Positions 17,176-52,412 of a DNA stretch of 64,000 nucleotides are shown piece by piece (within the stretch, counting starts at the first letter, position 1; each line of letters begins with the position of its first letter). Source of the stretch: Alphaproteobacteria bacterium (GTDB lineage: Bacteria; Pseudomonadota; Alphaproteobacteria; JAJFFI01); the NCBI GenBank assembly GCA_030066595.1, contig JASJBI010000057.1, positions 40,021 through 104,020 on the forward strand, given 5' to 3'. A model generated the notes under the pieces. That model saw only the letters and a list, made by a program, of their open reading frames with translations, did not search any database and was not told the DNA's origin. Position numbers and translations under genes: made by a program.

Positions 17176-17210
17176 GGCCGCGCCATTATCCCCATTACAC
17201 GATCGCAGTC

Positions 17211-17831
17211 TCATCTGGCGCTCTCCCGCACCACCCGCATCCGCACGAACAGCAGGAGGGACACGGTCGCCAGCATCGCCGTGGTGAACGCGCCGGTCAT
17301 GACGCCGCCCTGAACGAGGAAGGCTTGCGATCCGACCACCGACAGGAACTGGGTCAATCCATAGGTGACGGCCCACGCGATCAGGTAGCCCGTGGTCCGT
17401 TGAGCCATCAGGGACCCGTCGGCCACGTAGACGTGGTGGGCGCGGCCGCGGTATGCGCCGACGACCAGGCCCAGCAAGATGATCCCGAGCAGCAGGACCG
17501 GCGGCGGCAGATCGCGGTTCAGAACGGCGAGTTGCACCGCATAGCACCCGAAGGCGGCGAGCGGCGGCATGAGGCAGGCGATCCAATTGAGCCGCCATGG
17601 CCTCCGGTAGGTCCAGAGGAGCATGCCGAAGGACCCCGCGAAGAGCCAGATCAGACCTATGACGACTTGCCCGGAGGCGAGCAGGAAGAAGCCCGGGCCT
17701 AGAACCGCGGCGCTCATCGCCAAACTCTTGGCGAGGCTCTTGCCGCCGGCCGCGACCACGCGCCGCACCATTTCGGCCTTCAATTGGGCCGATTGTTTCG
17801 AGGCCTTGGTGCGTCGCGGTCTTGCAGGCAT
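17211..17831 (-). CDS. Integral membrane protein of unknown function
   Basis: 206 aa with a basic N-terminus and four to five hydrophobic helices. It lies immediately upstream of, and on the same strand as, the large protein gene (35-nt gap). Confidence 0.55.
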   Translation of the reverse strand: MPARPRRTKASKQSAQLKAEMVRRVVAAGGKSLAKSLAMSAAVLGPGFFLLASGQVVIGLIWLFAGSFGMLLWTYRRPWRLNWIACLMPPLAAFGCYAVQLAVLNRDLPPPVLLLGIILLGLVVGAYRGRAHHVYVADGSLMAQRTTGYLIAWAVTYGLTQFLSVVGSQAFLVQGGVMTGAFTTAMLATVSLLLFVRMRVVRESAR

Positions 17832-27363: not shown

Positions 27364-28155
27364 CTAACGAGGCCCGACGCGCGCGCGTTCGCGCTCTCTC
27401 CGGGCTTGCATGCCGGATCCGGAACTGTACGTTGCGCGATTGGTTTCCCCATGCGCCAAAGCCTCGAGTGCCGGCCTGTTCAGGACGACGACGCGGCTGG
27501 GGCGTGGCATGGCCACAATCTTTTCCCGTTTGAGCCGGGACAGCTCGCGGCAAACGGATTCCGTGGTCAGCCCCAGGTAATCCGCGATCTCCGGGCGGCG
27601 CATGGGCAGCGCGAACTCACGGCAGATATTGGACTGCACGGCTAACGGCTGGCAGAACTCCAACAGGAAGGACGCGACCTTTTCTTCCGTCGACTTTCGG
27701 CCCAAGGTGACCATGCGTTCCTGCAGGCCGGTGATCTCGTCGGCGGCCAAATCCAGCAGGGCGCGGTCGATCTCGGGATTGGCGTCGGCCATCCTGCGCA
27801 GGCCCTCCCATTCGATGCGGCAGAGCTTGCTGGCGCGGACGGACTGGGCCGTGACCGGCCAAGGGGTATCGCGCCGGTGCAACGTCAAAATGTCGCCGAC
27901 GGATCGAAACGCGACGATCTGCTGTCGGCCATCAGGCAGTCGCTTGGCCAGCTTCAGCAAACCCGACGACACCAACAGGAAGTCGCCGTTGACCTCTCCC
28001 TCTCTCGCGACGACATCCCCGGGCGCAAGATCGACGACAGACACCAGAGACTCGAGCTGACGGCGGCAGTTCCGGTCGAGCACGGAATCGAAAGGCCAAA
28101 CCGTGTTGGGGACAGGCCGGCGACCCTGAACAACGCGCAGCTCCATGGCGCTCAC
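27364..28155 (-). CDS. Crp/Fnr-family transcriptional regulator without an N-terminal Cys cluster (FixK-like)
   Basis: cNMP-binding-like effector domain with a C-terminal HTH (RPEIADYLGLTTESVCRELSRLK). Its ATG overlaps the upstream usp stop (ATGA), so usp and this gene are probably co-transcribed. Confidence 0.8.
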   Translation of the reverse strand: MSAMELRVVQGRRPVPNTVWPFDSVLDRNCRRQLESLVSVVDLAPGDVVAREGEVNGDFLLVSSGLLKLAKRLPDGRQQIVAFRSVGDILTLHRRDTPWPVTAQSVRASKLCRIEWEGLRRMADANPEIDRALLDLAADEITGLQERMVTLGRKSTEEKVASFLLEFCQPLAVQSNICREFALPMRRPEIADYLGLTTESVCRELSRLKREKIVAMPRPSRVVVLNRPALEALAHGETNRATYSSGSGMQARRERERARVGPR

Positions 28156-28670
28156 GCCTTTACGATGGTGACCGGGATATGCGCCCGCCGCACGACGGTC
28201 TGCGAGGTCGAGCCCAGAAGCATCCGGCCGAGACCCTTGCGGTCGCGACCGCCGAGAACGATCTGGCGGGCGCCGTGTTGTTCAGCCATGTGCAAAATGG
28301 TCGCTGCCGGAAGCCCTTCGATGCAGACCGGCTGCGCCGTCTGGAGCGGCTCCACGTCTGGGCGAGCCTGTCGCAGCTCCTCGAGCACCGCAGCCACCCG
28401 GCGCTGAGCCACGTCGGCCATGGGCTCCAGTGCGTCGCCGTTCTCGGACCGGTAGGTTCCGGGGGACTCGGCCGGATCATGGATCACGTGCAGCACCTGC
28501 AGCGGAGCGCCAACACGTTGCGCGTAGTCGCTCGCCCAGAGCAGGACCGCCTTCGCCTGCTCGGACAAATCGACGGCGACCAGAACCGGCGCCTCCGCTG
28601 TCTCCGTTGCCGGCTCGTCGCGAACAGCCGTTCTCTCGACGTCTTCCGATTTTAGGACGATCTGCTCCAT
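28152..28670 (-). CDS. Universal stress protein (UspA family)
   Basis: VLVAVDLSEQAKAVLLWASDYAQRVGAPLQVLHVIHDP...IVLGGRDRKGLGRMLLGSTSQTVVRRAHIPVTIVK. Paralog of the USP at 41607-42111. Confidence 0.8.
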   Translation of the reverse strand: MEQIVLKSEDVERTAVRDEPATETAEAPVLVAVDLSEQAKAVLLWASDYAQRVGAPLQVLHVIHDPAESPGTYRSENGDALEPMADVAQRRVAAVLEELRQARPDVEPLQTAQPVCIEGLPAATILHMAEQHGARQIVLGGRDRKGLGRMLLGSTSQTVVRRAHIPVTIVKA

Positions 28671-28861
28671 GTCTTCCAAAATCCCCTGTTCTCCGCCGTT
28701 TACGGCGACGTAGCGGATCTGCGACGCCGCCGCCCCAGGTCGACTGAGTGCCCGCCGACCCGGAGAGCACAATTCGATCGCCTAGGACTGACCTTGCCGA
28801 TCCGAACGTAACCTTGACCCATGAAGCTTTTGTGACATTTCGCTTACATTTGTGTAACGAA

Positions 28862-28875
28862 TTGAGCAGGCTCAA
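28862..28875. promoter_or_regulatory. FixK/FNR-type box TTGAGCAGGCTCAA (TTGA-N6-TCAA)
   Basis: Perfect palindromic half-sites, intergenic. It lies about 190 nt upstream of the usp-crp operon (minus strand) and about 130 nt upstream of the histidine phosphatase gene (plus strand). Confidence 0.55.
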
Positions 28876-29638: not shown

Positions 29639-30826
29639 TCACGCGAACACTTCCTCCGGCCGTTTGGCGAAATCGGCGGACAGGGCGTCGACGACGATGC
29701 GCAGGATCTCGTTGATGACCTGATCCTTGTAGTCGTTGACGACGATGCGGATGCCCCACCGATCCGCCTCGGACAAGAGGAACGACTGCAACTGCCAGAT
29801 GCCATCGAAGTGCTCGAGATATCTCTCGGCGCGTCGCTGGTCGGCGTGCTTGCCGCGCCCCCGGATCCCCGCCTTGAGCCGCTCGGGATTAAGGACGGCC
29901 AGCATGATCGGGACGACGATGGCGCCGGACTCCACCGGAATCCGGTCGAGCAAAGTGTGCTGTACGTGAACCCCCTCCAGGAGCAGTGAGACCTGCTCCC
30001 TGAGGGCGCGTTTGATGACCGCTTCACAGGGGACGGAGAGCAGCTCCGCCTGGGCTCGGTATCCATCGAGGACCGTGGCATCCGTATCGTTGGCGCGCTC
30101 GCCGCGGCCGGGCAGGGCACGCCAAGCGTCGAAGGAGGAGGTGTGCAGCACCGGTGAAAGGCGCTGCGGAATCATCATGCGCATGACTTCGCGAAGGAGA
30201 TCTGTCGACTGCGTGCGCACGATCCCGAGCCGATGCGCCACTTCGGTGGCCACGACGCTCTTGCCGCTGCCAGGGGCCCCACCGATCAGCACCAGCAAGG
30301 GTCGACCCCCGTGGAAGTAGTCCGCCAGAACCAGATAGCGGCGGGCGGCGCCGGCGCCCAGGGCGCGACGGACATAGCGAAACGTCAGAACCCCGAGATG
30401 GCGGGCCGTAATCTCCGCAACCGCCTTCTTCATCAGATGGTCGAAAATCGCGGTGGTGACCGCCGTGGATCGCTCGTAGGACAGTCCGCTGGACTCGAGA
30501 AGACGGCGATGCTGTTCCCGCGAGAACGGTGTGGTTCGCCCCGCGATGTCACGCACCAGGACCGTGTGGGGCGTGGCGCCCAGCGCCTCGTACCGCTGCA
30601 CGACCGCGGTGCCATACTCTGCCGACAGATGGCGTACGACCGCCTCGTGCAAGTCCGGCGTGGTGATCTCCGGCGTCTCTGCCAACTCCTCGCGCAAGGT
30701 TGAGGCGAGGGCATAGGCCTCATCGAAAGACAGGCCGGCATCCTGCAAAGATCGGGTCAAGATTCCGCGCAGAAACGGAATCTTGGTGTGGTCCTCGCCA
30801 GGCTCAATGACCAGCGTTTTCGCCAA
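29639..30826 (-). CDS. 2-phosphoglycerate kinase-like P-loop kinase with an N-terminal ATP-cone-like domain
   Basis: N-terminus IPFLRGILTRSLQDAGLSFDEAYALASTLREEL resembles the ATP-cone region of archaeal-type 2-phosphoglycerate kinases. P-loop LIGGAPGSGKSVVATEVAHRLGI. Family assignment from memory. Confidence 0.6.
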   Translation of the reverse strand: MAKTLVIEPGEDHTKIPFLRGILTRSLQDAGLSFDEAYALASTLREELAETPEITTPDLHEAVVRHLSAEYGTAVVQRYEALGATPHTVLVRDIAGRTTPFSREQHRRLLESSGLSYERSTAVTTAIFDHLMKKAVAEITARHLGVLTFRYVRRALGAGAARRYLVLADYFHGGRPLLVLIGGAPGSGKSVVATEVAHRLGIVRTQSTDLLREVMRMMIPQRLSPVLHTSSFDAWRALPGRGERANDTDATVLDGYRAQAELLSVPCEAVIKRALREQVSLLLEGVHVQHTLLDRIPVESGAIVVPIMLAVLNPERLKAGIRGRGKHADQRRAERYLEHFDGIWQLQSFLLSEADRWGIRIVVNDYKDQVINEILRIVVDALSADFAKRPEEVFA

Positions 30827-31019
30827 GGGCGCGCTCCGTTCGCTGCAAACTTGAGGATTTGTCCGACGGCTTCATTCGATGCGGTCGAACCGTCACATAC
30901 TCTTGATTTTTGTCAAGATCATACAGCAACGGAGCGGCCCGGAACAGCCGATCCGTCGTTCCAGGCAGACCCCACTTCGCGAATGAAATTTCGGGCCGGG
31001 AGCCTAGGTCAAGCGCTCC

Positions 31020-31475
31020 TCAGTCCTCGTCGGTCGCCCAGGCGGCGGACTTGGCGACCTGATCCTCCAGCGCACCGCGGATCCAGGTCAGCTCGGAAAG
31101 GACATTTTTGACCACGTCATTGATGCTGACGAGGCCCACCAATGCTCCGTCCTCCAGCACCGGCAGATGCCGCAGGTGACCACTTAACATCTGGTTCATC
31201 AGCTCTTCCGTGTCGGTCTCTGGCGTACAGGTCACGACCGACCGGGTCATCAGATCCGCGACGGATAGATCGAGCGTCTGCGCGCCGCGATCCGCGATGC
31301 TGCGCACGATATCGCGCTCGGAGATGATGCCGGCGATGGCCCCCTCATCCGTATTGACCAAGACGGCGCCAATCTGCTCGTCCCGCAGGATCTCGGCGAC
31401 CTCGGTCACAGCGGTGGCCTCGCGCGTTGTGACGACCCGTTCGCCCTTCTCCTTCAGAATGTCCGCAACCTGCAT
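31020..31475 (-). CDS. CBS-pair domain protein
   Basis: Two CBS motifs (VADILKEKGERVVT...IGAVLV...GIISERDIV; ADLMTRSVVTC...HLPVLEDGALVGLVSINDVV). Confidence 0.8.
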   Translation of the reverse strand: MQVADILKEKGERVVTTREATAVTEVAEILRDEQIGAVLVNTDEGAIAGIISERDIVRSIADRGAQTLDLSVADLMTRSVVTCTPETDTEELMNQMLSGHLRHLPVLEDGALVGLVSINDVVKNVLSELTWIRGALEDQVAKSAAWATDED

Positions 31476-31631
31476 TTTATGTTTCTCCTTGCTGCGACCC
31501 GACCTGGACTCCCATTCCCTCAAGCTTAGCCTGCGCCAGGCATGTTAAGGAAGGCCGGCGCCCGGCCCACCAGGCTTCGCTGACCAGGCCACGTCAGACA
31601 GGCGACGGAGGCTGCGCGTGTGGCGGCAACG

Positions 31632-32141
31632 TCAACTCGTCATGACGCCTACACCGATGAGCACCGCAAACCCCGCGACCAGAGCGATCAAGGCCTTGTT
31701 CTTGGTGGCGAACGACTTGACGTCTCGATTGAGCCCTTCGATCTCCTGCTCCTGCTCGCGGACGACCCAGCTCGTCAGGTCGCCGCTGGAGATCATCGCA
31801 AGCAGTTTGTCACCGTCCATGATCGGCAGATGCCGCACGCGACGCTCGGAGACCTGACGCATCGCCTCTTCGACGGTCATCGACGGTGGGACGCTGTACG
31901 GGTTCTCGGTCATGACCTGCGCGACCTGTGTCGTCTGAGGATCCAACGAGTCGTTCACCACACGGAACAATACGTCGCGCTCCGTGAAGATCCCGGCCAC
32001 CTTGTCGTCGGCGCGCACCAAGAGCGCACCCACCTTTTGGTCGTGCATTTTCTGGACGGCCTCGGCGACGGACGCATCCGGTGCGATCGCATGCACCTCT
32101 GAACCCTTCGATTTTGCGATCTCACTCAGCTGACTTTGCAT
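31632..32141 (-). CDS. CBS-pair domain protein with a C-terminal transmembrane anchor
   Basis: Two CBS motifs and a terminal hydrophobic helix (ALIALVAGFAVLIGVGVM). Confidence 0.8.
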   Translation of the reverse strand: MQSQLSEIAKSKGSEVHAIAPDASVAEAVQKMHDQKVGALLVRADDKVAGIFTERDVLFRVVNDSLDPQTTQVAQVMTENPYSVPPSMTVEEAMRQVSERRVRHLPIMDGDKLLAMISSGDLTSWVVREQEQEIEGLNRDVKSFATKNKALIALVAGFAVLIGVGVMTS

Positions 32142-32221
32142 GGCTGGATCTCCCCCTCGCGCTCAGTGCAACTCGGCTTTCCCGAAAGGCCGCAGTATTC
32201 TGCGCGGTTTCGGATCCCGCA

Positions 32222-32235
32222 TTGAGATATCTCAA
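32222..32235. promoter_or_regulatory. FixK/FNR-type box TTGAGATATCTCAA
   Basis: Perfect TTGA-N6-TCAA palindrome, about 80 nt upstream of the CBS-TM gene start at 32141. Confidence 0.55.
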
Positions 32236-32308
32236 TATTTTCCCTTCGATGATCGGAGCGCCGGCGGAGCGTCGTCGGCAGGCCATCGCAATCGCTCGAT
32301 AGACCGGG

Positions 32309-33385
32309 CTAAGACGTTCGGGCTGAACCGGCCGCGCGGGCAGCCCCTGCCATCCCCGGCGCGACAGCGCCGGTGTTGTCCAAGTGCGCCTTGAGAAGGT
32401 CATCCAGTTCGGGCCAGGATCTGTCATCCATAAGATTCAATGCCTTGAGCCCCGACAGCCGATCGATCAGCGCGACGCCGGCTTCCGTGCTGGTGGCCAT
32501 GCCGGCGACCAGGTCGGCCTTTCTGCCGAAGGCGTCGATGACGCCGAGCACCGAATAGGGATCGGACGCGCACAGCACCATGCAACGGACATGTGGGTCG
32601 ATCTGAGCCACCGCCACGGCACCATTGTAGGGCTCGAGTGGCGAGGCGCCCGCCTCCGCGACCAAGACGTCCGCAGACGCGCCAGCCATCATCGACATGA
32701 GCTGTTGTAGAGCGTCACGGTACTCGTCCTCCGGACACACGGTCGACGGCAAGCCCACGTCGACGAAATCGAAGATTTCCATGGCGCCCGCATCCAGCAT
32801 CCCCAGGATATCGCGATAGCGTCCGGCGCCGGTGAGCTTGGCGCCGATCACTGTGAGGCCCATCTCCGTGAGCCTGCGAATGATGATTTTTGCCGAGGTT
32901 GTCTTGCCGGCCGACATGGAGCTGCCAACCAGGAGTACGATCGGCAGCGTGAATTCGGCCGGGCCGCCCCGATGCGCATAGTCCCGCATGCGTGCGGGTT
33001 TGCCCTGGACCATGACATGTCCCTGATACTGCACCGGGATTGGCGGTGAGCAGTAAGGGGACTTCGATTCGACCTTTCCGAAGATGCCGGCCCCAGTCAG
33101 CGCCGTCATCCGTCCGTCCTCGCCGATATGCTTCCAGTCTCCGGTCAGCTCCAGGGTGGCAAACCGATTCCCGAAGGCGCCAACGATCAGGTCCCCTTCG
33201 GTCACCTCGATCATCCGGCCCGAGGTGAGCTCCAGCATGGCGCCGCGACTTGGCGGCTCGTTCACCAAGCCGACGACGTAATCGCCGGTTTGCCAGCTTC
33301 CACGGCCTTGCGGTTCGACCTCGAAGTCGATCTCGGAAAAGTCGGTAATGCGTGTCAACGAGGAAAAAAGGTAGTTGTGTCTCAT
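32309..33385 (-). CDS. P-loop NTPase-like protein (DUF1611-like or cyclic 2,3-diphosphoglycerate synthetase-like; uncertain)
   Basis: Walker A LLVGSSMSAGKTTSAKIIIRRL in the middle of a 358-aa protein. Its ATG overlaps the upstream M20 peptidase stop (ATGA). I cannot discriminate the family by eye. Confidence 0.5.
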   Translation of the reverse strand: MRHNYLFSSLTRITDFSEIDFEVEPQGRGSWQTGDYVVGLVNEPPSRGAMLELTSGRMIEVTEGDLIVGAFGNRFATLELTGDWKHIGEDGRMTALTGAGIFGKVESKSPYCSPPIPVQYQGHVMVQGKPARMRDYAHRGGPAEFTLPIVLLVGSSMSAGKTTSAKIIIRRLTEMGLTVIGAKLTGAGRYRDILGMLDAGAMEIFDFVDVGLPSTVCPEDEYRDALQQLMSMMAGASADVLVAEAGASPLEPYNGAVAVAQIDPHVRCMVLCASDPYSVLGVIDAFGRKADLVAGMATSTEAGVALIDRLSGLKALNLMDDRSWPELDDLLKAHLDNTGAVAPGMAGAARAAGSARTS

Positions 33386-34629
33386 GAGTCCTGTCCTTCA
33401 AGCGCGGGAACGGGCGCCGGGACCGCGTCGCTGGTCTTGGTCAGCCCTGATCCGCGCAGATCCGGTGCGACCAAGAGCAGAGCGAGCAGCGCGCTGCGCT
33501 CTACCAAACTGTCGAGGTAGACGAACTCGTGTTCCGCGTGCGCGCCGTCTCCGACCGCACCGAGTCCGTCAAGGGTTGCCGTATACAGGCTGGTAGTTGC
33601 CCCGTCCGAGCCGCCGCCGGCCATCCCTTCTTCCAGCGCCAGGCCGAGCACCGCTGCCGCTTCCTGGGCCAAAGCCCACAGTTCCCTGTTGCGCGGAGTG
33701 GACTCCATCGGAGGCCGCCCCATGCGGCCGCTCACCTTCAGCGAGACGCCCGGGGTGGTCGGCTGCAGGCTGGTAATTGCCTGCTCGACGCGGCCCGCGG
33801 CCGCCTGCGTTGGTACCCGGACATCGACAACGGCCCGGCTGGTCGGGGCGATGACGTTCGGTCCGAGCCCCCCTTCAATCTGACCGACATTGACCGTAAC
33901 ACCGCTGTCCGAATCGTTGAGGGCGAACAGCGCCTGGATCGCATAAGACAGTTCCAGGATCGCGCTGGCCCCGGCCTCGGGGTCGAGACCGGCATGTGCC
34001 GCCTTGCCCTGCGCCTCGATGGTAAACCGCCCGACCCCCTTGCGGGTTGTCTTGAGCTTGCCCTCGGGTCCGAGCGAAGGCTCGAATACGAAGGCACGGC
34101 GGGAACGACGCGCGATATGGCGGATCAGGCGGGCCGACTCGAAACTGCCGATCTCCTCGTCCGTGTTGATCAGGACGACCGGCGTCACATCTGGCGAGAT
34201 GTCGAGTTGCGCCAGTGCCTTGAGCGCAAAGATCACCTGTACGAGACCGGCCTTCATGTCATAGACGCCGGGTCCGTGCATGCAGCCGTCCTTGACGATC
34301 AGCGGCATGTCCTTGAGCGTGCCGATAGGCCAGACCGTGTCGCAATGACCGAGCAGCAGCTGCAGCGGCTGGCCACGGCGATGACGGCGTGGTCGGGCAT
34401 ACAGCTGGCCACCGGTGGCGCGGCCGGGGATCAAGCGAACCTCAAGGTCAAGCTCGCTCAGTGCTTCGAATAGGATGGTCAGGACGCCCTGCTGGGCTTC
34501 CGGGACTCGCGACGGCGATTCGGCGAGAACGAGGCGCTCCAGAAGGGCGACCATTTCCGCATACTGGGCGCCGAGCGTATCCAGGACGCTCTTGGCCAGG
34601 CGGCCGTCCATCGGATCAGGCGGCGACAT
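33382..34629 (-). CDS. M20-family metallopeptidase/deacylase (carboxypeptidase G2, ArgE or DapE-like)
   Basis: HCDTVWP...DMKAGL...NTDEEIGS...GKAAHAG are motifs of the M20 catalytic and dimerisation domains. Confidence 0.8.
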   Translation of the reverse strand: MSPPDPMDGRLAKSVLDTLGAQYAEMVALLERLVLAESPSRVPEAQQGVLTILFEALSELDLEVRLIPGRATGGQLYARPRRHRRGQPLQLLLGHCDTVWPIGTLKDMPLIVKDGCMHGPGVYDMKAGLVQVIFALKALAQLDISPDVTPVVLINTDEEIGSFESARLIRHIARRSRRAFVFEPSLGPEGKLKTTRKGVGRFTIEAQGKAAHAGLDPEAGASAILELSYAIQALFALNDSDSGVTVNVGQIEGGLGPNVIAPTSRAVVDVRVPTQAAAGRVEQAITSLQPTTPGVSLKVSGRMGRPPMESTPRNRELWALAQEAAAVLGLALEEGMAGGGSDGATTSLYTATLDGLGAVGDGAHAEHEFVYLDSLVERSALLALLLVAPDLRGSGLTKTSDAVPAPVPALEGQDS

Positions 34630-34746
34630 GCGGCGCGCCGCCCGCGGACGCCAATCGCGTGCCCGCGCGGACCTCCGTTGCAAGCAGGGATGGCTGATCG
34701 GCTCTCTTGCTCTCAGGGCGGAATCGGGTCATGGCGATCGGCCCAC

Positions 34747-35352
34747 TCAGCGCTTGAATCCGGCTGGGAACGGGAATGCAAGGCTCTCCCGGATGGTGGC
34801 GAACCGCCCGGGATGGAGATAGGCCAGCAGTGGCGAGTCATGGAACAGCTCGCTGTCGTCGCGCTCGGACTCGCGGAGGGCGTCTTCGGGCACATGGGCG
34901 GCGACGACTCGGCCGGTGATCAGGCTGTTTCCGGAAAAGCCGTCAATGATCTTGTGCAGCCGGCACTCCAGGAACAGGCTGCCGTCCCGCACGAACTCGC
35001 CGTCCACCTCGCGGGCCGGAATCGTGTGCAGAGCCATGAGGTTGGGTTTGCTGCCGTCGCCGCAGCGCGGCCCGGCGGCGATGCTGGTCAGCACGACCTG
35101 TGTCGGGCGCGGATAGCTGACCGTGAAGACCTGTTCCCGCTCGATGTTCTTGTAGGTGCCGTGTTTCGGCGTGCAGACGAAGCCGAAGAAATTGTCCCAG
35201 CTCATCGGCATGGCCATGTGCTTGGGCGCCAGGTCGTAGCTGCCGTCGGCCTCACGAGTCCCGATCAGCACAAGAGGAAAGACCGTAAAGAATCGATCCC
35301 AAATGGGATGATCCGTGGCCAGAGTAACAAGGCCGTCTTGAACATGCGACAT
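34747..35352 (-). CDS. Flavin reductase-like (FMN-binding split-barrel) domain protein
   Basis: FFTVFPLVLIGTREADGSYDLAPKHMAMPMS fits the flavin reductase-like fold pattern. Confidence 0.7.
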   Translation of the reverse strand: MSHVQDGLVTLATDHPIWDRFFTVFPLVLIGTREADGSYDLAPKHMAMPMSWDNFFGFVCTPKHGTYKNIEREQVFTVSYPRPTQVVLTSIAAGPRCGDGSKPNLMALHTIPAREVDGEFVRDGSLFLECRLHKIIDGFSGNSLITGRVVAAHVPEDALRESERDDSELFHDSPLLAYLHPGRFATIRESLAFPFPAGFKR

Positions 35353-35480
35353 GGCGATTTTCCAAGCTATTCTAGCAGCAAGATAGCCTCGCCAATCATA
35401 GCGCTGCCGGTGCGCCTCGATATATGACCTGCATCAAGAAACGCGCGGGGCCGGGGCTCGGACAGAGAGCGCCGGGTTGC

Positions 35481-36002
35481 TCAGTGGCGGCGCGGCAGAT
35501 CGCCTGCAGCCGACTCGCGGCGACCGAGCCAGAGCGGCTCGGTGCCTTCGGGCAGGGTCTTGCAGAACATGAAATGGTCCATGCGGTGTCCGCGACTGGT
35601 TAGGCTGTCGCGCAGCGCGCGATTGCCCCTTTGCGGCAGGTCGAGCAGCAAGCTGGTATGGATCGCCCTGCAGTCGCATTCTGCCGCCACCTGCTCGACG
35701 CCCTCGATCAAGAGGGCGAAGGCGGCTTCGGTCGATTGACGGACGGGCGCCAGGACCAAAGCGTCCTTGGCCAGCAAGGTTCGACCGTGCTTGAGATCGG
35801 TGTAGATCGTGTAGAAGATCAGGCCGAGGATGTAGCCCTGTTCCGTTTCGACGGTCAGGATGCCATGGTCGGCGCTCGCTGCTGGCCTCAGATGTTCCGT
35901 CGCGAGTGCGCACCAGCCCTCCAAGGAGAGATCAGGACGCATCGCCTGGATCAGTGGATAGGCTTGAGCGACCTTGGTGCGGCAAAGTGGCGCGAGTCTC
36001 AT
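35481..36002 (-). CDS. Hypothetical protein, possibly GNAT-like fold
   Basis: 174-aa ORF starting MRLAPL. The track's 36218 start is an upstream extension. Divergent from fnrL. Confidence 0.4.
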   Translation of the reverse strand: MRLAPLCRTKVAQAYPLIQAMRPDLSLEGWCALATEHLRPAASADHGILTVETEQGYILGLIFYTIYTDLKHGRTLLAKDALVLAPVRQSTEAAFALLIEGVEQVAAECDCRAIHTSLLLDLPQRGNRALRDSLTSRGHRMDHFMFCKTLPEGTEPLWLGRRESAAGDLPRRH

Positions 36003-36275
36003 CTGCGGTCCGACCGTAATCCCGCATTTGCCCAGGGATCCTGACCGAACAGCGACACGACGTCGTTGAGCTATGTCAAAACTGAGCGTTGCGTCGTCTA
36101 TGGGGTTGTTTGCTCCAAGGCCGCCGCCTGCGGTCCGGCATGATGCGGCGTGCTTGCAGCGCATGTTAACCCTAACTCCCCCGTCAAAACCGATACACCT
36201 CCACAGTTTCGAGCGCATTGCTTGCCTGCCAACGGCTTATCAGGCATGTTTGAAACCGGGGAGGACAGCACGAAT

Positions 36276-37061
36276 ATGGCCAAGGCTGCCAAGCCTTTGA
36301 CCGAGCTGGAGGGCACCACTGCGCTGCCGCGTGCGGTACCGCGCGGGGGGCCGGGTGTGGCGCCGTGCGGCGCCTGCGCGGTGCGGCCCTTGGCCATCTG
36401 CGCGGCTATGCCGCTCGAGCATCTCGCTCAGCTTGCGGCGATCGTCACAAGCGTCAGCCTCACCGCAGGCCAGCCGCTGTTCCTCGAAGGCGAGCCGGCG
36501 CGGCATCACTTCATCGTCACAGGAGGCGCCCTCAAGATCTATAAGCTGCTGTCCGACGGCCGGCGGCAGGTGACCGGCTTCGTGTTTCCCTCGGATTTCC
36601 TCGGCCTCGCCAACAAGGAGACCTATGCCTACAGCGCCGAGGCCATGACCCGGACCGAGCTGTGCCGCTTCCGCCGGGAAAAGCTCGAGGCGATGCTGGA
36701 TCGCTTCCCACAGCTTGAGAGACGCCTGCTGGCGGTGGCCAATGACGAGCTTGCAGCCGCCCAGGAGCGGATGCTGTTGTTGGGCCGCAAGACGGCCAAG
36801 GAGCGCATTGCCTCGTTCCTGACGACCCTGGGCAGGACCACGTCCCGTCGGGGAGAGAGCAAGCAGGTCGTCACCCTCCCCATGAGCCGGACGGACATCG
36901 GCGACTACCTGGGCCTCAGCACAGAGACCGTGAGCCGCACGTTCACCGAGCTAAAGCTGGCGGGCATCGTGCGGCTCGAGCCCAAGAGCCGCGTGCGTAT
37001 TCTGGATGACCGCAAGATCAACCTGCTGGCGGAATGCGAAGACGCGACACTGGGGCTTTGA
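36276..37061 (+). CDS. fnrL: FNR/FnrL-type oxygen-sensing transcriptional regulator (Crp/Fnr family with 4-Cys cluster)
   Basis: N-terminal CGACAVRPLAIC plus a central Cys (TELCRF) in the canonical FNR [4Fe-4S] ligand spacing. HTH DIGDYLGLSTETVSRTFTELK carries the E--SR recognition motif for TTGAT half-sites. Confidence 0.85.
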   Translation: MAKAAKPLTELEGTTALPRAVPRGGPGVAPCGACAVRPLAICAAMPLEHLAQLAAIVTSVSLTAGQPLFLEGEPARHHFIVTGGALKIYKLLSDGRRQVTGFVFPSDFLGLANKETYAYSAEAMTRTELCRFRREKLEAMLDRFPQLERRLLAVANDELAAAQERMLLLGRKTAKERIASFLTTLGRTTSRRGESKQVVTLPMSRTDIGDYLGLSTETVSRTFTELKLAGIVRLEPKSRVRILDDRKINLLAECEDATLGL

Positions 37062-37144: not shown

Positions 37145-39460
<2,316 letters not shown>

Positions 39461-39601
39461 ATCGCCTCCCCTCGTCGTCCCGCGCGGGCCACGCAATCAG
39501 GCCCCCACGCAGGACAAACCACGTCCCTCACCTGATCCGGCCATTTTGGCCGGTCCAGGCAACGCGATTTTTTCTCTTATCGCGCCCCGTCCGAGCCCGC
39601 A

Positions 39602-39615
39602 TTGAGCCAGCTCAA
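39602..39615. promoter_or_regulatory. FixK/FNR-type box TTGAGCCAGCTCAA
   Basis: Perfect TTGA-N6-TCAA palindrome, about 140 nt upstream of the ppk1 start at 39460. Confidence 0.55.
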
Positions 39616-39702: not shown

Positions 39703-41511
39703 TCATTCCGCCGCCTCCGGCACGCCGGCGGAGGGCGTCACCGGCCACTGGGTCTTGGCGATCTTGCGGCAGAGCCGGTAGATGCGGCTCAGATTCTCGA
39801 TCATCTCCATTTCCCGCGTGAAGGTGCGCAGCCGGTTCGGTTCCTGGGCCACCAGGCGGCTGACCTCGTGGCGAGCCGTTTCTTGGGCCAGCTCGGCCAT
39901 GTCCTTCTTCATGCCTTTGACCCGCAAGGCGGCCGCCGGATCCTCCTCTCGAACCGCCTGAACGGACGTGTGAAAGGCTTCCGTGACCTGGTCGTGATAG
40001 CGCTGGATCACGGCCCGCGTCTCGTCGCTCACGGCCACGTCCTCCTCGATTCGCCGGCGCCCGATGGTGACCAGGTTGGTCTCCATGATATCGCCGATCT
40101 GCTCGAGGTTGTTGGCCACCAGCAAGAGATCCATGATCTCCGCAGTTTCCTCCGGCGAGAGCTCCTCGCGGCTCACCTGACCGAGATAACGGACGATGTG
40201 CCCATGCAGGACGTCGATATCCGCGTCCATTGCGGCAAGCCTCTCCAGGTCCTCCTCGGAGCCCGATACCACGGCCGGCAAGCTGGCCTGCAGCATCTCC
40301 TCGGTCAGATCGCCCAGGCGCCCGATCTCGCGCCGGGCCCGGTCGAGCGCCAGCGCCGGCGTCGACAGCAGCTCCTTGTCGAGATAGCGGGCCTGGATGA
40401 CCGCCGGCTCGACCATCGGCCGGTCGGGCACGAGCCACTCGGCGAAACGCGCGACCAGGCCGGCAGCCGGCAGGAACGCGAGGGCGAAGAAAACGTTGAA
40501 GGTGGTGTGGGCGTTGGCGATCTGGCGCGGCGTTTCGGCGGCCAGCTTGTCCATGCCGGTGACGCCTTGCGCGACCGGTGAGATCGAGCGCACGAATTCG
40601 GCGAGCATGGGAATGAACCACACGGCGATCGCGACGCCCGCGACGTTGAAGGTGACGTGCGCCACCGACACGCGAACGGCCTCCCGGGGCTTGCCGATGG
40701 CGGCGAGCCCCGCCGTGACGCAGGTTCCGATGTTGGCCCCCATGATCAGGGCGATGCCGCCTTCGAGGCTGATCAGACCCTGGGACGCCATCGCAATGAC
40801 AACACCCGTGGTCGCCGAGGACGACTGGATCAGGCCGGTGAAGGCCGCGGAGATCAGAATTCCCACGGCCGGAGTCGACACCTCGCGCATCAGCTCGATG
40901 AAGGGCTCGTAGGTGCGCAGCGGCTTCATGCCCGAGCTCATGATCCCCATGCCGAAGAAGATCAGCCCCAGCCCCATGACCAGCGCGCCATATTGCTTTA
41001 TCCGCTCGGACTTGCCGGTGAAGATCAGGACGAAGCCGACGGCCACCAGAAGAAGCGCGTAATGGGTGACCTTGAAGGCGACGATCTGGGCGGTAATCGT
41101 CGTGCCGATATTGGCGCCGAAGATGACGCCGACGGCCTGCGACAAGGACATCAGCCCGGCGGTCACGAATCCCACCAACATCACGGTGGTCACCGAGGAG
41201 GACTGAATGACCGCGGTGACGAAGGTCCCCGTGAGTGCGCCCATGAACCGATTTGTCGTGAGCTTGCCCAAAATGGTCTTCATCCGGTTCCCGGCGACCT
41301 TCTTGAGGGCCTCGGCCATCTGCTCCATGCCGAACAGGAACACGGCAAGCCCGCCGAAGAGCTGCATGCCCATCGTTCCCCACGCGATCGGCTTGCCTTC
41401 CGCCGCGGCGAGAGCGGGCGTGGACGCGATCCAGGCCGCCGCCGCCAAAATGAGAAAGATCCCGGTGTACAGGATCCGGTTCTTGGCGCTGGCGTGATGA
41501 ATGCTTCCCAT
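39703..41511 (-). CDS. Na/Pi cotransporter family protein (NptA-like) with C-terminal PhoU-like domain
   Basis: Duplicated Na/Pi cotransporter repeats (GANIGTTITAQIVAF...; GANIGTCVTAGLAAI) followed by a helical PhoU-like tail. ATG at 41511 with SD GGGGG upstream. Confidence 0.8.
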   Translation of the reverse strand: MGSIHHASAKNRILYTGIFLILAAAAWIASTPALAAAEGKPIAWGTMGMQLFGGLAVFLFGMEQMAEALKKVAGNRMKTILGKLTTNRFMGALTGTFVTAVIQSSSVTTVMLVGFVTAGLMSLSQAVGVIFGANIGTTITAQIVAFKVTHYALLLVAVGFVLIFTGKSERIKQYGALVMGLGLIFFGMGIMSSGMKPLRTYEPFIELMREVSTPAVGILISAAFTGLIQSSSATTGVVIAMASQGLISLEGGIALIMGANIGTCVTAGLAAIGKPREAVRVSVAHVTFNVAGVAIAVWFIPMLAEFVRSISPVAQGVTGMDKLAAETPRQIANAHTTFNVFFALAFLPAAGLVARFAEWLVPDRPMVEPAVIQARYLDKELLSTPALALDRARREIGRLGDLTEEMLQASLPAVVSGSEEDLERLAAMDADIDVLHGHIVRYLGQVSREELSPEETAEIMDLLLVANNLEQIGDIMETNLVTIGRRRIEEDVAVSDETRAVIQRYHDQVTEAFHTSVQAVREEDPAAALRVKGMKKDMAELAQETARHEVSRLVAQEPNRLRTFTREMEMIENLSRIYRLCRKIAKTQWPVTPSAGVPEAAE

Positions 41512-41606
41512 TGCGTTACCCCCTGCGGTTCTCTTATCGGCAGCCGGTTTTGTGCCCAGCAGGCAAAGCCCCATCCGACAGCCCCGCCCCATATTTCTGC
41601 TGTCTG

Positions 41607-42111
41607 TCAACGATCATTTCTCGGCGCCTTGACGATTGTGACCGGGATCGGCGAGAGCTGGACCACCCGCTCGGCCTTGGAGCCCAACAGCAGATGCGGC
41701 AGGCCGGTGCGCCCACGGCTTCCCATCACGATCATGCGGGCGCCGGTGTTGGTGGCCGCTTCCAGAATGCGCGTATCCGGAATGCCCTTGACCAGGGTCG
41801 TCTCGGCGGTTGCCAGCGCCTCGAGCTGCGGATGTTCCTCCCGCGCCGTGGCGACGAACTCGTCCATCATTTCCCGGGCGACGTCTTCCATGGGCTGCAA
41901 GTGATCTTTCTGGTTCTTGCGATAGGAGCCCGGCGCCTCGGCCGGATCGTGCACCACATGCAGAATGCGAACCGGTGCACCGACAGTGGCTGCATACTCG
42001 CAGGCCCATCGCAAGGCCGCCTCGGAATCGGCCGTGAAGTCGACGGCCACCAGGATCGGGCCGTCGTCGCTCGGATGCTCGGTGGATTTGGCCGTCTGGG
42101 TTTCGCTCACC
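41607..42111 (-). CDS. Universal stress protein (UspA family)
   Basis: ILVAVDFTADSEAALRWACEYAATVGAPVRILHVVHDP...VMGSRGRTGLPHLLLGSKAERVVQLSPIPVTIVK. GTG start at 42111 after SD GGGGGGAGAG. The track merges it with a long antisense ORF (41607-43760). Confidence 0.8.
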
Positions 42112-42208: not shown

Positions 42209-42234
42209 GATCTAGTTGGCTGGCGCCACAACAA

Positions 42235-42248
42235 TTGAGCCACATCAA
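42235..42248. promoter_or_regulatory. FixK/FNR-type box TTGAGCCACATCAA
   Basis: Second perfect box in the same divergent intergenic region, 40 bp from the first and about 210 nt upstream of the CNNM gene start at 42456. Confidence 0.5.
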
Positions 42249-42455
42249 TTTCTGCAGTGCACAATTCCCCCTATATCTTGCGCTGGCAAAAAGCGCGGAC
42301 GAAACGGTACACTCCGGGCGGCGAGAGACCGGCCTGAGCGGCTGCCTTCCGCCATCTGGCCGATAGCGGCAGGCGCTCGCGCGTGGCGGTCTGGGACGCC
42401 TTGGTCCAGCCGGCCGGTGTCGCGAGCGATCGTCCGCCGGGGGAGGGAGAGGTGC

Positions 42456-44135
42456 ATGGACGGGACCGTCCTGGACATCGCGCGGATGTGGGAGGCGACC
42501 CAGGCCTTCTTCGCCTTCGACACGGCGCGCCTGCTCGCGCCCGGTATCATCGCCGCGCTCGTCCTGCAGGTCTTCCTGTTCGTCTGTTCCGCTTTCTTTT
42601 CCGGCTCTGAAACCGCGCTGTTCTCGCTGTCGCGGCTCGATCTGCAAAAGCTGCGACGCGAGCGGCACCCGCGCTCGGAAGTGCTGCATGCGCTCTTGGA
42701 CCAGCCGCGGCGCCTGATCATTTCGATCCTCTGCGGCAATGAACTCGTCAATATCGCGGCGACTGCAAATCTGGCCGGCATCCTGGTCTATCTGTACGGC
42801 GAGGATCGGGCCGGCCTGATCAACGTGCTGGTGATGTTTCCCCTGCTGCTGCTCTTCGGTGAAGTGACGCCGAAGACCATCGCGGTCAGCAATCCGGTCC
42901 GCATCAGCGCCGGCCTGGTGGCCTCTCCCTTGAGCGTCTGGGCCAAGCTGATCACGCCGCTGCGGCGGGTGGTCCGGATCGCGGCAGATCGGGTGACCAC
43001 TTGGATCGTTGGCGCGGAACGGGCGCGGGAGAACATCCTCCATGTGGACGAACTGCGCACCTTGCTGGAGGACGTGGAGCATGAAGGCGTCCTGGACGCG
43101 ACCGAACGGGTCCTGATCGACAATCTGCTGGAGGCGAGCGAGACGGAGATCGTCGAGATCATGACGCCCCGCACGCGCATCGACTTCCTCCGGGACGACA
43201 TGGCGGTGCCGGAGATCGTCAAGCATTTTCGGGCCTTCTGCCATCCCCGCGTTCCGGTCTGCCACGAGCATCACGACAACCTTGTCGGCTTCATTCATGC
43301 CGAGGATGTGGTCCGGCTCGTGCTCGACGGCGTCGACCTCTCGACGCTTGCGCTCGACGACATCATGCATCCGCCGGTCGTCGCGCCGCCGACCAAGCAT
43401 GTCGACGAGATGTTTGATTTCTTTGAGGCCAACAATGCGCGCGCGGCCGTGGTGCTGAACGAGTTCGGCGGCGTCGAGGGTCTGATCACCATGCGGGACG
43501 TGGTCAACTTCATCTTCGGCGAGATCTCGGAAGGCCTCGGGGGCCAGCACCTCTACCAAGAGCGAGACGAGAACGTCTATGTGGTGCCCGGCCAGATGAA
43601 GCTGACGGACTTCAACGACCTCACGAATTTCGGCATCGAGGACCCGCGCATGACGACGATCGGCGGCGTGGTCTTTCGCTATCTCGACCGTTTGCCCAAG
43701 GTCGGTGATCGCGTTGCCATGGACGGCTTCGTCGCCACCGTGCTGGAAATGGACGGGCATCGGCTGGCCAAGGTGCGCATCGCAAAGGGAACGATCGAGG
43801 AAGAAGAGCAGCGGGAAGCGAGCCGGCAGGCCGACGAAGCCGCCGCGGAGGCGAATTCGAAGCCGGCGCCGAAAGCCGGGAAGTCCGAGAAGAAGATCGC
43901 CGATGCGTCATCGAAAGGCGGTCCATCGAAAGAAAAAGATAAGGCAGCAAGAGAAAAGGCACCGAAAGCCAAGCCGGCGCCGGCTGCCACGACTTCCCGG
44001 GACGACGAGGACGCGCCCTTGGCGTCCGCCAAAGTCGTCGAGCTTGCGGCGCTCATGGAAGACGCCGCCAAGCCGGCGGCGGCGGAAAAGCGCGACGCGC
44101 CCGAGCGCGGCAAGAAAGGCAAGGAGAGGAGCTAG
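42456..44135 (+). CDS. CNNM/CorC/TlyC-family transporter (DUF21 + CBS pair + CorC_HlyC) with a Lys/Ala/Glu-rich C-terminal tail
   Basis: DUF21 membrane domain (FFSGSETALFSLSRLDLQKL), CBS pair, CorC_HlyC region, then about 100 aa of KA/E-rich low complexity. Start ATG at 42456 (MDGTVLD). Confidence 0.8.
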   Translation: MDGTVLDIARMWEATQAFFAFDTARLLAPGIIAALVLQVFLFVCSAFFSGSETALFSLSRLDLQKLRRERHPRSEVLHALLDQPRRLIISILCGNELVNIAATANLAGILVYLYGEDRAGLINVLVMFPLLLLFGEVTPKTIAVSNPVRISAGLVASPLSVWAKLITPLRRVVRIAADRVTTWIVGAERARENILHVDELRTLLEDVEHEGVLDATERVLIDNLLEASETEIVEIMTPRTRIDFLRDDMAVPEIVKHFRAFCHPRVPVCHEHHDNLVGFIHAEDVVRLVLDGVDLSTLALDDIMHPPVVAPPTKHVDEMFDFFEANNARAAVVLNEFGGVEGLITMRDVVNFIFGEISEGLGGQHLYQERDENVYVVPGQMKLTDFNDLTNFGIEDPRMTTIGGVVFRYLDRLPKVGDRVAMDGFVATVLEMDGHRLAKVRIAKGTIEEEEQREASRQADEAAAEANSKPAPKAGKSEKKIADASSKGGPSKEKDKAAREKAPKAKPAPAATTSRDDEDAPLASAKVVELAALMEDAAKPAAAEKRDAPERGKKGKERS

Positions 44136-44138
44136 CCG

Positions 44139-45434
44139 ATGATTACCGAAATGCTCCTGGCGATCCTGGCCATGCTGCTGTTCTTGGCGCTCAAGGGCTT
44201 CTTCTCGGGCTCGGAAATCGCTCTGGTCAACGCCGACAAGATCAAGCTCCGCCACCGGGCCAAACAGGGTCACCGCGGCGCCGAGTTGTCGCTGAAGCTC
44301 TTGCAGGCGCCGGACGTGCTGCTGAGTACGACCCTGGTGGGCACCAATATCTGCACGGTGGTGCTCACGACCATCGGCGCCTTGCTGATGATCCGGCTGT
44401 TCGGCGAGCTTGGCGAGGTCTACGCCTTCCTGATCCTGACGCCGTTGCTGCTGGTGCTCGGCGAGATCGTGCCCAAGAGTGTCTACCAGCAGAAGTCCGA
44501 TCGGCTGACGCCGATCATCATCTATCCGCTGCGTTGGGCCTCGTATCTGTTCTATCCGGTGGTCTTCGTGTTCTCCCGCGTGGCGCGGCTCACCGCGCGG
44601 CTGGCCGGCGCCGGTAAGCGGGAGCAGCCGTTCTTCATCACGCGGGAGCAGCTCCGCATGCTGCTCGACGTGGCCGAGCACGGACCGGCGATGGACGCCT
44701 TCGGCAAGGGCCGCATCCGCCGGGTCATCCGCTTTGCCGAGACGACCGTGGCCGAGGCCATGATCCCGATCGCCGAGGCAACGGCGATCAGCCGCAGCAG
44801 CAGCACGGCGACGGCGGTCGATCTGGTCCGCAAGCACGGCTATAACCGCCTGCCGGTGTTCGAGAGCAGCACCAGCAATATCGTCGGCATCGTCACCTTG
44901 ACCACCTGGGACCTGATGGACCCGGAACTCAGGGAACGGCCGCTCGAGAGCCTGATCAAGCCCGCCCTCTACGTCTCGCCCCTGCAGACGATCGACCAGC
45001 TGTTGCCGGTCCTGCGACGGCGGCCGGACCATATGGCCATCGTCGTCGACGAATTCGGCACCGCGATCGGCATGATCACCATGGAGGACATCGTCGAAGA
45101 GGTCGTTGGCGAGATCGATGTGGGCTACGACTTCGAGGAGTACCTGCCGAAAAGGAAGCGGGTCTACGAGAAGCTTGCCGAAGAGGTCTATCTGATGGAC
45201 TCGCGGCTCTCGGTTTCGGAAGCCAACGAGGTGCTTGCCATCAACCTGCCGACCACCGAGTTCCATACCGTGGGCGGTCTGGTTCTGGCGCGGCTCCGCC
45301 ATATTCCCGAGATCGGCGAATACATCGGCGAAGAGGGCTATCGCTTTACGGTGGTCGAGGCCAGCGACCGGGCGATCCTGAGGCTGCGGGTCGAACCCGA
45401 ACACCTTGTCGGCCAGGCCGACGAGCCGGTCTAG
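44139..45434 (+). CDS. CNNM/CorC-family Mg2+/Co2+ transporter (DUF21-CBS-CorC_HlyC)
   Basis: FFSGSEIALVNADKIKL..., CBS pair, and a C-terminal transporter-associated domain. Confidence 0.85.
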   Translation: MITEMLLAILAMLLFLALKGFFSGSEIALVNADKIKLRHRAKQGHRGAELSLKLLQAPDVLLSTTLVGTNICTVVLTTIGALLMIRLFGELGEVYAFLILTPLLLVLGEIVPKSVYQQKSDRLTPIIIYPLRWASYLFYPVVFVFSRVARLTARLAGAGKREQPFFITREQLRMLLDVAEHGPAMDAFGKGRIRRVIRFAETTVAEAMIPIAEATAISRSSSTATAVDLVRKHGYNRLPVFESSTSNIVGIVTLTTWDLMDPELRERPLESLIKPALYVSPLQTIDQLLPVLRRRPDHMAIVVDEFGTAIGMITMEDIVEEVVGEIDVGYDFEEYLPKRKRVYEKLAEEVYLMDSRLSVSEANEVLAINLPTTEFHTVGGLVLARLRHIPEIGEYIGEEGYRFTVVEASDRAILRLRVEPEHLVGQADEPV

Positions 45435-45475
45435 CGTAACCGGACCTCCGAGGCGAGTGAGCCGTCGGAAAGCAT

Positions 45476-52258: not shown

Positions 52259-52345
52259 ATCCGCCCTTTCCGCCACGTCATTGCAGAAGTCTCAAGTGGC
52301 GATGACAAAACCATAACAATACGACGCCAAACTCCTCTTCAGGAA

Positions 52346-52359: not shown

Positions 52360-52412
52360 TTTTGTGCCCGGCCCCTGCCGGGCGCGTGCGGACTGTTTGA
52401 AGGGGAGATGTC

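Follow-up and report, generated by a model that had tools for sequence, protein, structure and literature searches.

A 2-phosphoglycerate-kinase-family gene of phosphate/polyphosphate neighbourhoods and an unrelated three-gene operon form a mosaic in an alphaproteobacterial phosphate island

We analysed a 64,000-nucleotide stretch of DNA (the window) from an Alphaproteobacteria bacterium of lineage JAJFFI01 (GenBank assembly GCA_030066595.1, contig JASJBI010000057.1, positions 40,021 to 104,020, forward strand), in which a first-pass annotation had read five genes, encoding an M20 peptidase, a P-loop protein, two CBS proteins and a 2-phosphoglycerate-kinase (2PGK)-like protein, as a single operon of a cyclic 2,3-diphosphoglycerate (cDPG)-type pathway. 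Rather than one five-gene pathway, the region between 29 and 35 kb combines two conserved but unrelated modules in a mosaic, and it sits in a 35-kb, FixK-box-rich phosphate/polyphosphate island extending from ~27 to 62 kb. Module A consists of genes for a flavin-reductase-like protein, the M20 hydrolase and the P-loop protein; module B consists of a universal stress protein gene (usp), a Na/Pi cotransporter gene with PhoU domains (NaPi/PhoU), ppk1, a cbs gene (CBS2 in the window), the 2PGK-family kinase with its ATP-cone, and a histidine phosphatase convergent with it, and the window holds the alphaproteobacterial arrangement of module B with module A inserted. We consider it probable that all parts of this architecture hold together, namely that the modules are independent, that the kinase belongs to the phosphate/polyphosphate system and that no cDPG synthetase is involved. 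Our fuller reading, to which we give a probability of about 35%, is that the kinase, occurring in at least eight phylum-level groups, represents an undescribed branch of phosphate/polyphosphate metabolism that makes 2,3-bisphosphoglycerate or a related bis-phosphorylated acid, and that the trio of module A is a new amino-acid N-acylation/deacylation system around a protein whose N-terminal fold has not been seen before. The product of the kinase would then appear to be a phosphate buffer or signal tied to Pst/Pit uptake and PPK1/PPK2 turnover, apparently wired in this lineage to oxygen limitation through FixK boxes and paralleled by the link of plant LPA1 to phytate.

The 395-aa kinase exceeds the Pfam ATP-cone cut-off (30.7 bits against 25.8) and aligns near full length, though below the curated cut-offs, with two NCBIfam 2PGK models, PRK12337 (E 2e-76; residues 11-388 on model positions 94-476 of 492) and PRK04220 (E 1e-67; residues 97-385 on model positions 13-295 of 306), so that the assignment made in the first-pass annotation survives a profile search. 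Its Walker A motif, GGAPGSGKS, is invariant across the family, as are the core residues G182, G183, G186, G188, K189, S190, E284, G285 and H287 among 23 family members; the consensus MAKT of homologues backs the start position, and more than 2300 homologues are ~395 aa long. Its sequence thus predicts a 2PGK-family P-loop kinase that carries an ATP-cone and is catalytically intact. In the PDB, searches with the single sequence and with a profile returned only Walker-A matches to adenylate kinases. The automatic NCBI name 'zeta toxin family protein' would make it a zeta-toxin-family toxin, and the Pfam Zeta_toxin model does score above its cut-off (23.8 bits against 22.3). That match is limited to the Walker A region (residues 172-220), whereas the 2PGK models take in ~290-380 residues at E 1e-67 to 2e-76; nothing resembling an antitoxin accompanies it, the synteny with phosphate genes is conserved, and PADLOC matched none of eight proteins, the kinase included, to a defence system, all of which makes a toxin hardly credible.

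Neighbourhoods of the kinase were surveyed in 80 species-level genome loci from alpha- and gammaproteobacteria (Thiodiazotropha, Sedimenticola, Chromatiaceae), Planctomycetota, Desulfocapsaceae, Gemmatimonadota, Bacteroidota/Rhodothermales, Nitrospirae and sponge-associated lineages, with neighbouring genes clustered without prior labels and the clusters named afterwards by NCBIfam. A gene for phosphate (Pi) transport or polyphosphate metabolism lies within 6 kb of the kinase in 59 of 72 loci and within 10 kb in 68 of 80, compared with 2/85 for loci of the module A trio, which served as a control. Recurrent neighbours are PstS, PstC/A, PhoU, PPK1, PPK2 (often divergent, ~100-150 bp upstream), Ppx/GppA, CNNM/CorC, the Na/Pi cotransporter and a PitA-like transporter with its TIGR00153/DUF47 partner; one locus (L008) reads PPK1-NaPi-CYTH/CHAD-ParA-like-kinase-histidine phosphatase. 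The kinase is a conserved member of phosphate/polyphosphate neighbourhoods over many bacterial phyla. The tie to polyphosphate, which the first-pass annotation had drawn through a shared low-oxygen regulon, goes beyond such a regulon and is stronger than claimed, being a matter of conserved synteny; the same comparison of gene neighbourhoods that joins the kinase to phosphate and polyphosphate genes splits the proposed five-gene unit into two modules.

The commonest neighbour of all is a cofactor-independent phosphoglycerate mutase of ApgM type (TIGR00306, 337.6 bits against a cut-off of 320), found in 29 of 72 loci (29-34 across counts) and, when present, always directly downstream of the kinase on the same strand. 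ApgM and the histidine phosphatase never occur together in kinase loci. The kinase is preferentially coupled to a phosphoglycerate mutase, and the downstream ApgM gives a predicted phosphoglycerate substrate some backing. In eight loci of Thiodiazotropha-type and related bacteria (among them L036, L039, L043-L045 and L052) a 578-aa protein that begins with a response-regulator receiver domain is encoded directly upstream of kinase-ApgM-ppk1, which suggests another regulatory input there.

Module A is conserved elsewhere and in other company. The trio survey covered 80 metagenome loci together with neighbourhood examples, 85 loci in all, a locus counting as testable when its sequence reached 2 kb or more upstream. 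The M20 gene lies directly upstream of the P-loop gene in 52/57 loci, and a flavin-reductase-like gene lies upstream in 48/48 testable loci, with an adjacent M20 gene as well in 45 of them. The order flavin-reductase, M20, P-loop recurs in an Actinomycetota metagenome-assembled genome (MAG), in Rhodothermales MAGs and on a 2.2-Mb contig, each time between unrelated flanks; any further neighbour is shared by 7 of 77 loci at most, and neither a 2PGK-like gene nor ppk1 was found in any of the 85. Conversely, a P-loop or flavin-reductase gene occurs in 0/80 kinase loci and an M20 gene in only one. Because the synteny of the trio is kept without kinase or ppk1, the real conserved unit is a three-gene operon that ends before the CBS genes, self-contained, widespread across phyla and independent of the kinase. 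The first-pass annotation named the M20 family correctly, overlooked the flavin-reductase-like gene beyond its left boundary, which is the partner of the M20 and P-loop genes, and assigned those two genes to the pathway of the kinase, which the counts contradict.

In the window, six genes follow one another on the minus strand between 29.0 and 35.4 kb, in the order flavin-reductase-like, M20, P-loop, CBS1, CBS2, kinase. The five genes and the FixK box that the first-pass annotation described among them are real, correctly placed and, for the genes, co-oriented; the ATGA overlaps and short gaps said to join them are not, which leaves that observation partly confirmed. Only M20 and P-loop overlap (4-bp ATGA), the other junctions being gaps of 167 bp (P-loop-CBS1), 156 bp (CBS1-CBS2) and 193 bp (CBS2-kinase). 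That all five nevertheless form one operon for 2,3-diphosphoglycerate or cDPG, with the P-loop protein as a cDPG-synthetase-like partner, could be argued from their adjacency and common orientation both here and in a related locus (L169), from the 2PGK family of the kinase, and from the layout of cDPG synthetase (cDPGS), likewise an N-terminal domain of ~130 aa followed by a HypB/UreG-like P-loop domain. Two of the 156-193 bp gaps carry FixK boxes of their own, the P-loop gene and the kinase do not meet in the 80 and 85 other loci of either survey, and the set from M20 to kinase is conserved only in L169. The P-loop protein was also rejected as cDPGS-like on its own account, having no sequence similarity to cDPGS and an all-beta N-terminal domain without a PDB match, as opposed to an alpha/beta N-domain of ~130 aa before an LpxK/UreG/HypB-like P-loop core in cDPGS (PMC10690619). 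A single five-gene operon of this kind is very improbable; as proposed it is wrong, while the intuition of a 2PGK-like kinase tied to polyphosphate is right.

The pathway nearest to hand is that of 2PGK and cDPG synthetase in Methanothermus fervidus (Lehmacher et al. 1990, as cited in PMC12136491). The window's kinase is homologous over nearly the whole archaeal 2PGK model, and the ApgM paired with the kinase in other bacterial lineages is an archaeal-type mutase. It differs in being bacterial and of mesophile type, in its N-terminal ATP-cone domain and in falling below the 2PGK cut-offs, and members of its family stand amid pst, pit, ppk1, ppk2 and ppx genes. We found no cDPG-synthetase partner; a cyclic product is for that reason unsupported, and a cyclic thermoprotectant is not expected.

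The P-loop protein has more than 5000 homologues at E <= 0.001, nearly all unnamed. Its AlphaFold model, built on 36 homologues (predicted local distance difference test, pLDDT, 90), comprises an all-beta domain without a solved relative (residues 1-138) and a SIMIBI P-loop domain of the DUF1611/dethiobiotin synthetase/CTP synthase type (residues ~145-335). PDB sequence searches, single-sequence and profile, found nothing; Pfam PF07755 (DUF1611) gave no match at E <= 0.01, homologues reaching 16-20.5 bits against a cut-off of 25, and the Rossmann-like N-terminal domain of DUF1611 proteins is not present. The first-pass alternative of a DUF1611-like protein is therefore right for the modelled C-terminal fold only, whose nearest counterparts are DUF1611 (PDB 2g0t, 2obn), the D-glutamate N-acetyltransferase DgcN (PDB 7xrj), dethiobiotin synthetase and the synthetase domain of CTP synthase. 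DgcN works with the racemase DgcA; the P-loop protein is instead partnered by an M20 hydrolase and by an FMN-binding-like protein. The latter has as its nearest PDB entry 1eje, an archaeal FMN-binding protein (E 2e-8). The M20 protein is closest to carboxypeptidase G2 (CPG2; E 3e-30) among solved structures and shares the canonical di-zinc ligands and general-base Glu of CPG2 and of ArgE/DapE/LysK-type deacylases (H95, D124, E158/E159, E183 and H364, invariant in 56/56 family members); it lies below every NCBIfam equivalog cut-off (best PRK07338 'hydrolase', 257 against 357) and differs from those deacylases by its coupling to P-loop and flavin-reductase-like genes.

A distant P-loop homologue (~30% identity) is encoded between argG and an N-acetylornithine carbamoyltransferase gene (410 bits, cut-off 288), with argH next in line, and may be a missing N-acylglutamate-forming enzyme; the gene of a second one, at the same identity, shares 4 bp with that of a RimK/LysX-family glutamate ligase (the two homologues lie at L177 2822-3904 and L173 6001-7092). 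Because of these neighbours and the structural relation to the N-acetyltransferase DgcN, we propose that module A may serve N-acylation/deacylation of a glutamate-type amino acid: the P-loop protein would probably N-acylate or ligate the amino acid and the M20 enzyme would probably reverse the modification. The N-acylation role drawn from these analogies is tentative, possible but on balance unlikely. Neighbourhoods of two other distant homologues (P0313, P0317) were uninformative. On a single metagenome contig, a 939-aa protein (P0373) has a P-loop-family domain fused to an S-adenosylmethionine (SAM) methyltransferase and a TauD-type dioxygenase, a combination that hints at the tailoring of an amino acid or small molecule.

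Module B has an ancestral alphaproteobacterial arrangement, usp-NaPi/PhoU-ppk1-cbs-kinase with a convergent histidine phosphatase, the gene order being preserved in five loci (L006, L007, L014, L015 and L086). The phosphatase next door, which the first-pass annotation had identified, converges on the kinase across 84 bp in the window, and its orthologues (49-60% identity) do likewise in seven alphaproteobacterial loci. The two CBS assignments are equally sound, their association with the kinase holding for one gene of the two: full-length orthologues of CBS2 (48-56% identity) stand directly upstream of the kinase in nine alphaproteobacterial loci, whereas CBS1 is only 27-38% identical to this conserved cbs gene, is found also in L169 and by sequence comparison reads as a lineage-specific paralogue. 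Inserted between ppk1 and cbs in the window are a crp-type regulator gene, a small hypothetical gene, the trio and CBS1; at the same junction another relative (L170) has PhoU_div and PHO4. The small hypothetical gene lies in an over-extended 245-aa open reading frame (ORF; 35481-36218, minus strand), of which no more than the last ~173 codons show coding signal; a homologous 138-aa gene stands at the matching place in L169, and searches of Pfam, NCBIfam and PADLOC returned no match.

The window contains nine perfect TTGA-N6-TCAA boxes against 0.30 expected, a number reached in 0 of 100 shuffles, and these lie ~70-110 bp upstream of start codons. The box in the CBS1 gap had been noticed in the first-pass annotation, whose count missed an equally perfect one upstream of the kinase. 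The box at the divergent crp/fnr-type and small hypothetical genes is ~70 bp upstream of both, as a consequence of the shortening of the latter gene, and is conserved in L169 (position 6668); relatives also keep the double box that precedes usp. Density is 0.43 per 10 kb in trio loci and 0.42 per 10 kb in kinase loci, and since the two are equal in general, the enrichment is specific to the lineage of the window. The boxes imply a predicted low-oxygen (FixK) control of module B in that lineage, and we infer the control of each promoter from them. One FixK-dependent promoter would serve the whole usp-to-kinase unit in relatives, and after the insertion the separated pieces would carry boxes of their own. 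A scan of 28.7-36.3 kb for sigma-70 promoters and intrinsic terminators gave nothing above shuffles, and the long intergenic gaps of 28.0-37.5 kb matched no Rfam family at E <= 1. Classical targets of FixK/FnrL in alphaproteobacteria are cbb3-oxidase and nitrogen-fixation genes. The island resembles those regulons in its boxes and in encoding two Crp/Fnr-family regulators, and differs in that the box-adjacent genes concern phosphate, polyphosphate and Mg transport.

We infer the following scheme for substrate and product. As its most likely reaction, the kinase would phosphorylate 2-phosphoglycerate to 2,3-bisphosphoglycerate under adenylate control by the ATP-cone. Outside the alphaproteobacteria the co-transcribed ApgM-type mutase would supply the 2-phosphoglycerate; in alphaproteobacteria the histidine phosphatase would probably remove or transfer that phosphate, and one or the other enzyme would connect the 2,3-bisphosphoglycerate pool to glycolysis. 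The pool would buffer or signal phosphate status, coupled to Pi uptake and polyphosphate turnover. Such a role of 2,3-bisphosphoglycerate in phosphate homeostasis is plausible and apparently undescribed; for 2,3-bisphosphoglycerate as the specific product, predicted from the family, we would stop somewhat short of even odds.

Several observations weigh against our reading, those on the kinase being set out here and those on the mosaic in the paragraph that follows. The curated 2PGK cut-offs are not reached (PRK12337, 257.5 against 603; PRK04220, 228.3 against 343), the ATP-cone match begins at model position 7, leaving the first six positions uncovered, and we know of no biochemistry for any bacterial member of the family. 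An ApgM gene is absent from the window. Pho boxes upstream of the kinase are not enriched (3 of 77 loci against ~1.7% of shuffled sequences), and the loci counted above are not independent events, many of the 80 being related gammaproteobacterial MAGs. The family also includes mevalonate-3-phosphate 5-kinase (E 2e-16, NCBIfam), with another substrate, and plant LPA1 (low phytic acid 1), a 2PGK-family kinase without which phytate does not accumulate (PMC6417671) and whose link is to phytate, not diphosphoglycerate. On account of these two relatives, a kinase of the same phosphate/polyphosphate system acting on a different small phospho-acid or polyol, on the lines of LPA1 with inositol phosphates, or serving mainly as an ATP-sensing regulator, is a serious rival, possible if unlikely. 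The sub-equivalog scores and the substrate diversity of the family agree with it, as do the half of the kinase loci that have no ApgM, and the PDB search gave no solved structure from which to read an active site. It has to contend with an ApgM that passes its NCBIfam cut-off and is the most frequent immediate downstream partner, with the replacement of ApgM in alphaproteobacteria by a phosphatase of the phosphoglycerate-mutase superfamily, and with an alignment that spans nearly all of the archaeal 2PGK model (13-295 of its 306 positions).

On the side of the mosaic, L169 has the identical 12-gene arrangement of the window, trio included, at ~70% protein identity, and both genomes have an imperfect FixK-like box ahead of the trio (the L169 copy, TTGACCTATATCAT, having the same TCAT half-site) and a perfect box upstream of the crp/hypothetical pair. 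The boxes upstream of the kinase and of CBS1 are not perfect in L169, where the latter corresponds to a box with one mismatch and the former has no perfect counterpart. A 740-aa M20/P-loop fusion is known from one contig only and, as a singleton, is given little weight. The shared arrangement and conserved imperfect box ~80 bp upstream of the flavin-reductase-like gene are reasons to allow that the trio was recruited in this lineage into the low-oxygen phosphate programme, which would make the five-gene grouping locally meaningful. We think this rather unlikely: it is seen in two genomes only, the same junction holds other cargo in L170, phosphate genes lie within 10 kb in just two of the 85 other trio loci, and the density of FixK-type boxes is no higher in trio loci than in kinase loci (0.43 and 0.42 per 10 kb, as above).

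The remaining features of the window are collected with the foregoing in Table 1. Between 27 and 62 kb the island holds FixK, usp, ppk1, NaPi/PhoU, three CNNM genes, PPK2, phoR, pstS, a phoU-LMWPc fusion, pstC/A, pstB, DUF47, PitA and a 501-aa metallophosphoesterase. The last resembles a 483-aa protein without an NCBIfam match that occurs near the kinase in 10 other loci, usually beside PitA/TIGR00153. The PhoU-LMWPc fusion recurs in 21-28 kinase loci, and the pairing of CNNM/CorC with usp around boxes 42195 and 42235 is conserved in relatives.

Table 1. Features of the 64,000-nucleotide window (positions counted from its first letter)
Feature	Position	Strand	Evidence or remark
Hydantoinase/oxoprolinase B and A subunit genes	2723-8128	+	Outside the phosphate island
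TRAP transporter DctM gene	10277-12025		Downstream of the hydantoinase/oxoprolinase genes, outside the phosphate island
1222-aa ORF	13930-17598	-	Coding-like G+C at third codon positions (GC3 0.79); no Pfam match at E <= 1e-4
FixK/FnrL-type regulator	27364-28155	-	NCBIfam FixK E 2e-29, FnrL E 5e-27, both below cut-off; Pfam Crp-family domains
Universal stress protein	28152-28772	-	Pfam Usp E 4e-28
Perfect FixK box	28862-28875		Between divergent usp and histidine phosphatase
Histidine phosphatase, 183 aa	29003-29554	+	Pfam His_Phos_1 E 1e-37; RHG and HSG motifs present
ATP-cone and 2-phosphoglycerate-kinase-family P-loop kinase, 395 aa	29639-30826	-	TTG start; Pfam, NCBIfam
Perfect FixK/Fnr-type box TTGATTTTTGTCAA	30903-30916		Centre ~83 bp upstream of kinase start
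CBS2, CBS-pair protein, 151 aa	31020-31475	-	From ATG with AAGGAG ribosome-binding site; Pfam CBS E 1e-22
CBS1, CBS-pair protein, 169 aa	31632-32141	-	C-terminal hydrophobic helix; Pfam CBS E 2e-24
Perfect FixK/Fnr-type box (TTGA-N6-TCAA) TTGAGATATCTCAA	32222-32235		Centre ~87 bp upstream of CBS1 start
Module A	32309-35352	-	Flavin-reductase-like, M20, P-loop
Two-domain P-loop protein, 358 aa	32309-33385	-	Contains GSSMSAGKTTSAKIII; no Pfam or NCBIfam match
M20 metallohydrolase, carboxypeptidase-G2-like	33382-34629 (ORF to TTG at 34683)	-	Pfam Peptidase_M20 E 9e-27 and M20_dimer
Flavin-reductase-like/FMN-binding split-barrel protein, 201 aa	34747-35352	-	First trio gene; Pfam Flavin_Reduct E 9e-14
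Imperfect FixK-like box, minus strand TTGATGCAGGTCAT	35424-35437		~80 bp upstream of flavin-reductase-like gene
Small conserved hypothetical protein, ~173 aa	35481-36002	-	Codon-position GC signal only from ~35481 to 36000
Perfect FixK box	36066-36079		Between divergent crp/fnr-type gene and small hypothetical gene
Crp/Fnr-family regulator (second copy)	36150-37061	+	Pfam cNMP_binding, HTH_Crp_2, Crp
Polyphosphate kinase 1	37145-39496	-	All four PPK1 Pfam domains
Perfect FixK box	39602-39615		Upstream of ppk1
Na/Pi cotransporter with PhoU domains	39703-41610	-	Pfam Na_Pi_cotrans E 1e-66, PhoU E 2e-18
Perfect FixK boxes	42195 and 42235		Divergent usp/CNNM region
Three paralogous CNNM/CorC genes	42216-46786		CBS-containing, Mg-transport-type; beside polyphosphate genes
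Perfect FixK box	47183		Upstream of PPK2
Two-domain PPK2	47510-49144	+	Pfam E 3e-150, two matched stretches
Complete phosphate-uptake block	50627-60378		phoR, pstS, phoU-LMWPc, pstC/A, two pstB-like ATPases, DUF47 (PhoU_div), PHO4/PitA
PhoU fused to low-molecular-weight phosphotyrosine-phosphatase/arsenate-reductase-like domain	53465-54550	+	Inside pst operon
Perfect FixK box	58178		Upstream of DUF47-PitA
Calcineurin-like metallophosphoesterase, 501 aa	60498-62003	-	40% identity (E 9e-102) to recurrent 483-aa kinase neighbour

The 2PGK family and its combination with an ATP-cone were already known; the phosphate-island context, the pairing with ApgM and the wiring to FixK appear to be new. Literature searches linking 2PGK or the ATP-cone to polyphosphate or the Pho regulon returned only papers on plant LPA1 and unrelated matches, and a search on DUF1611 returned nothing useful. 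The trio is an uncharacterised operon whose P-loop protein belongs to no Pfam family and has an N-terminal domain of unseen fold. For annotation, a plausible but wrong operon call is corrected, as is the automatic 'zeta toxin' name. LPA1, likened to the window's kinase by family description, is eukaryotic and concerns phytate and not polyphosphate; like that kinase it is a P-loop kinase of the 2PGK family, and it is tied genetically to a phosphate-storage compound. If the kinase does make 2,3-bisphosphoglycerate, it would add a small-molecule player to bacterial phosphate homeostasis, relevant where polyphosphate cycling counts, as in sulfur-oxidising symbionts, sediment bacteria and microoxic alphaproteobacteria, and phosphate storage would be a theme common to the bacterial and plant homologues of 2PGK.

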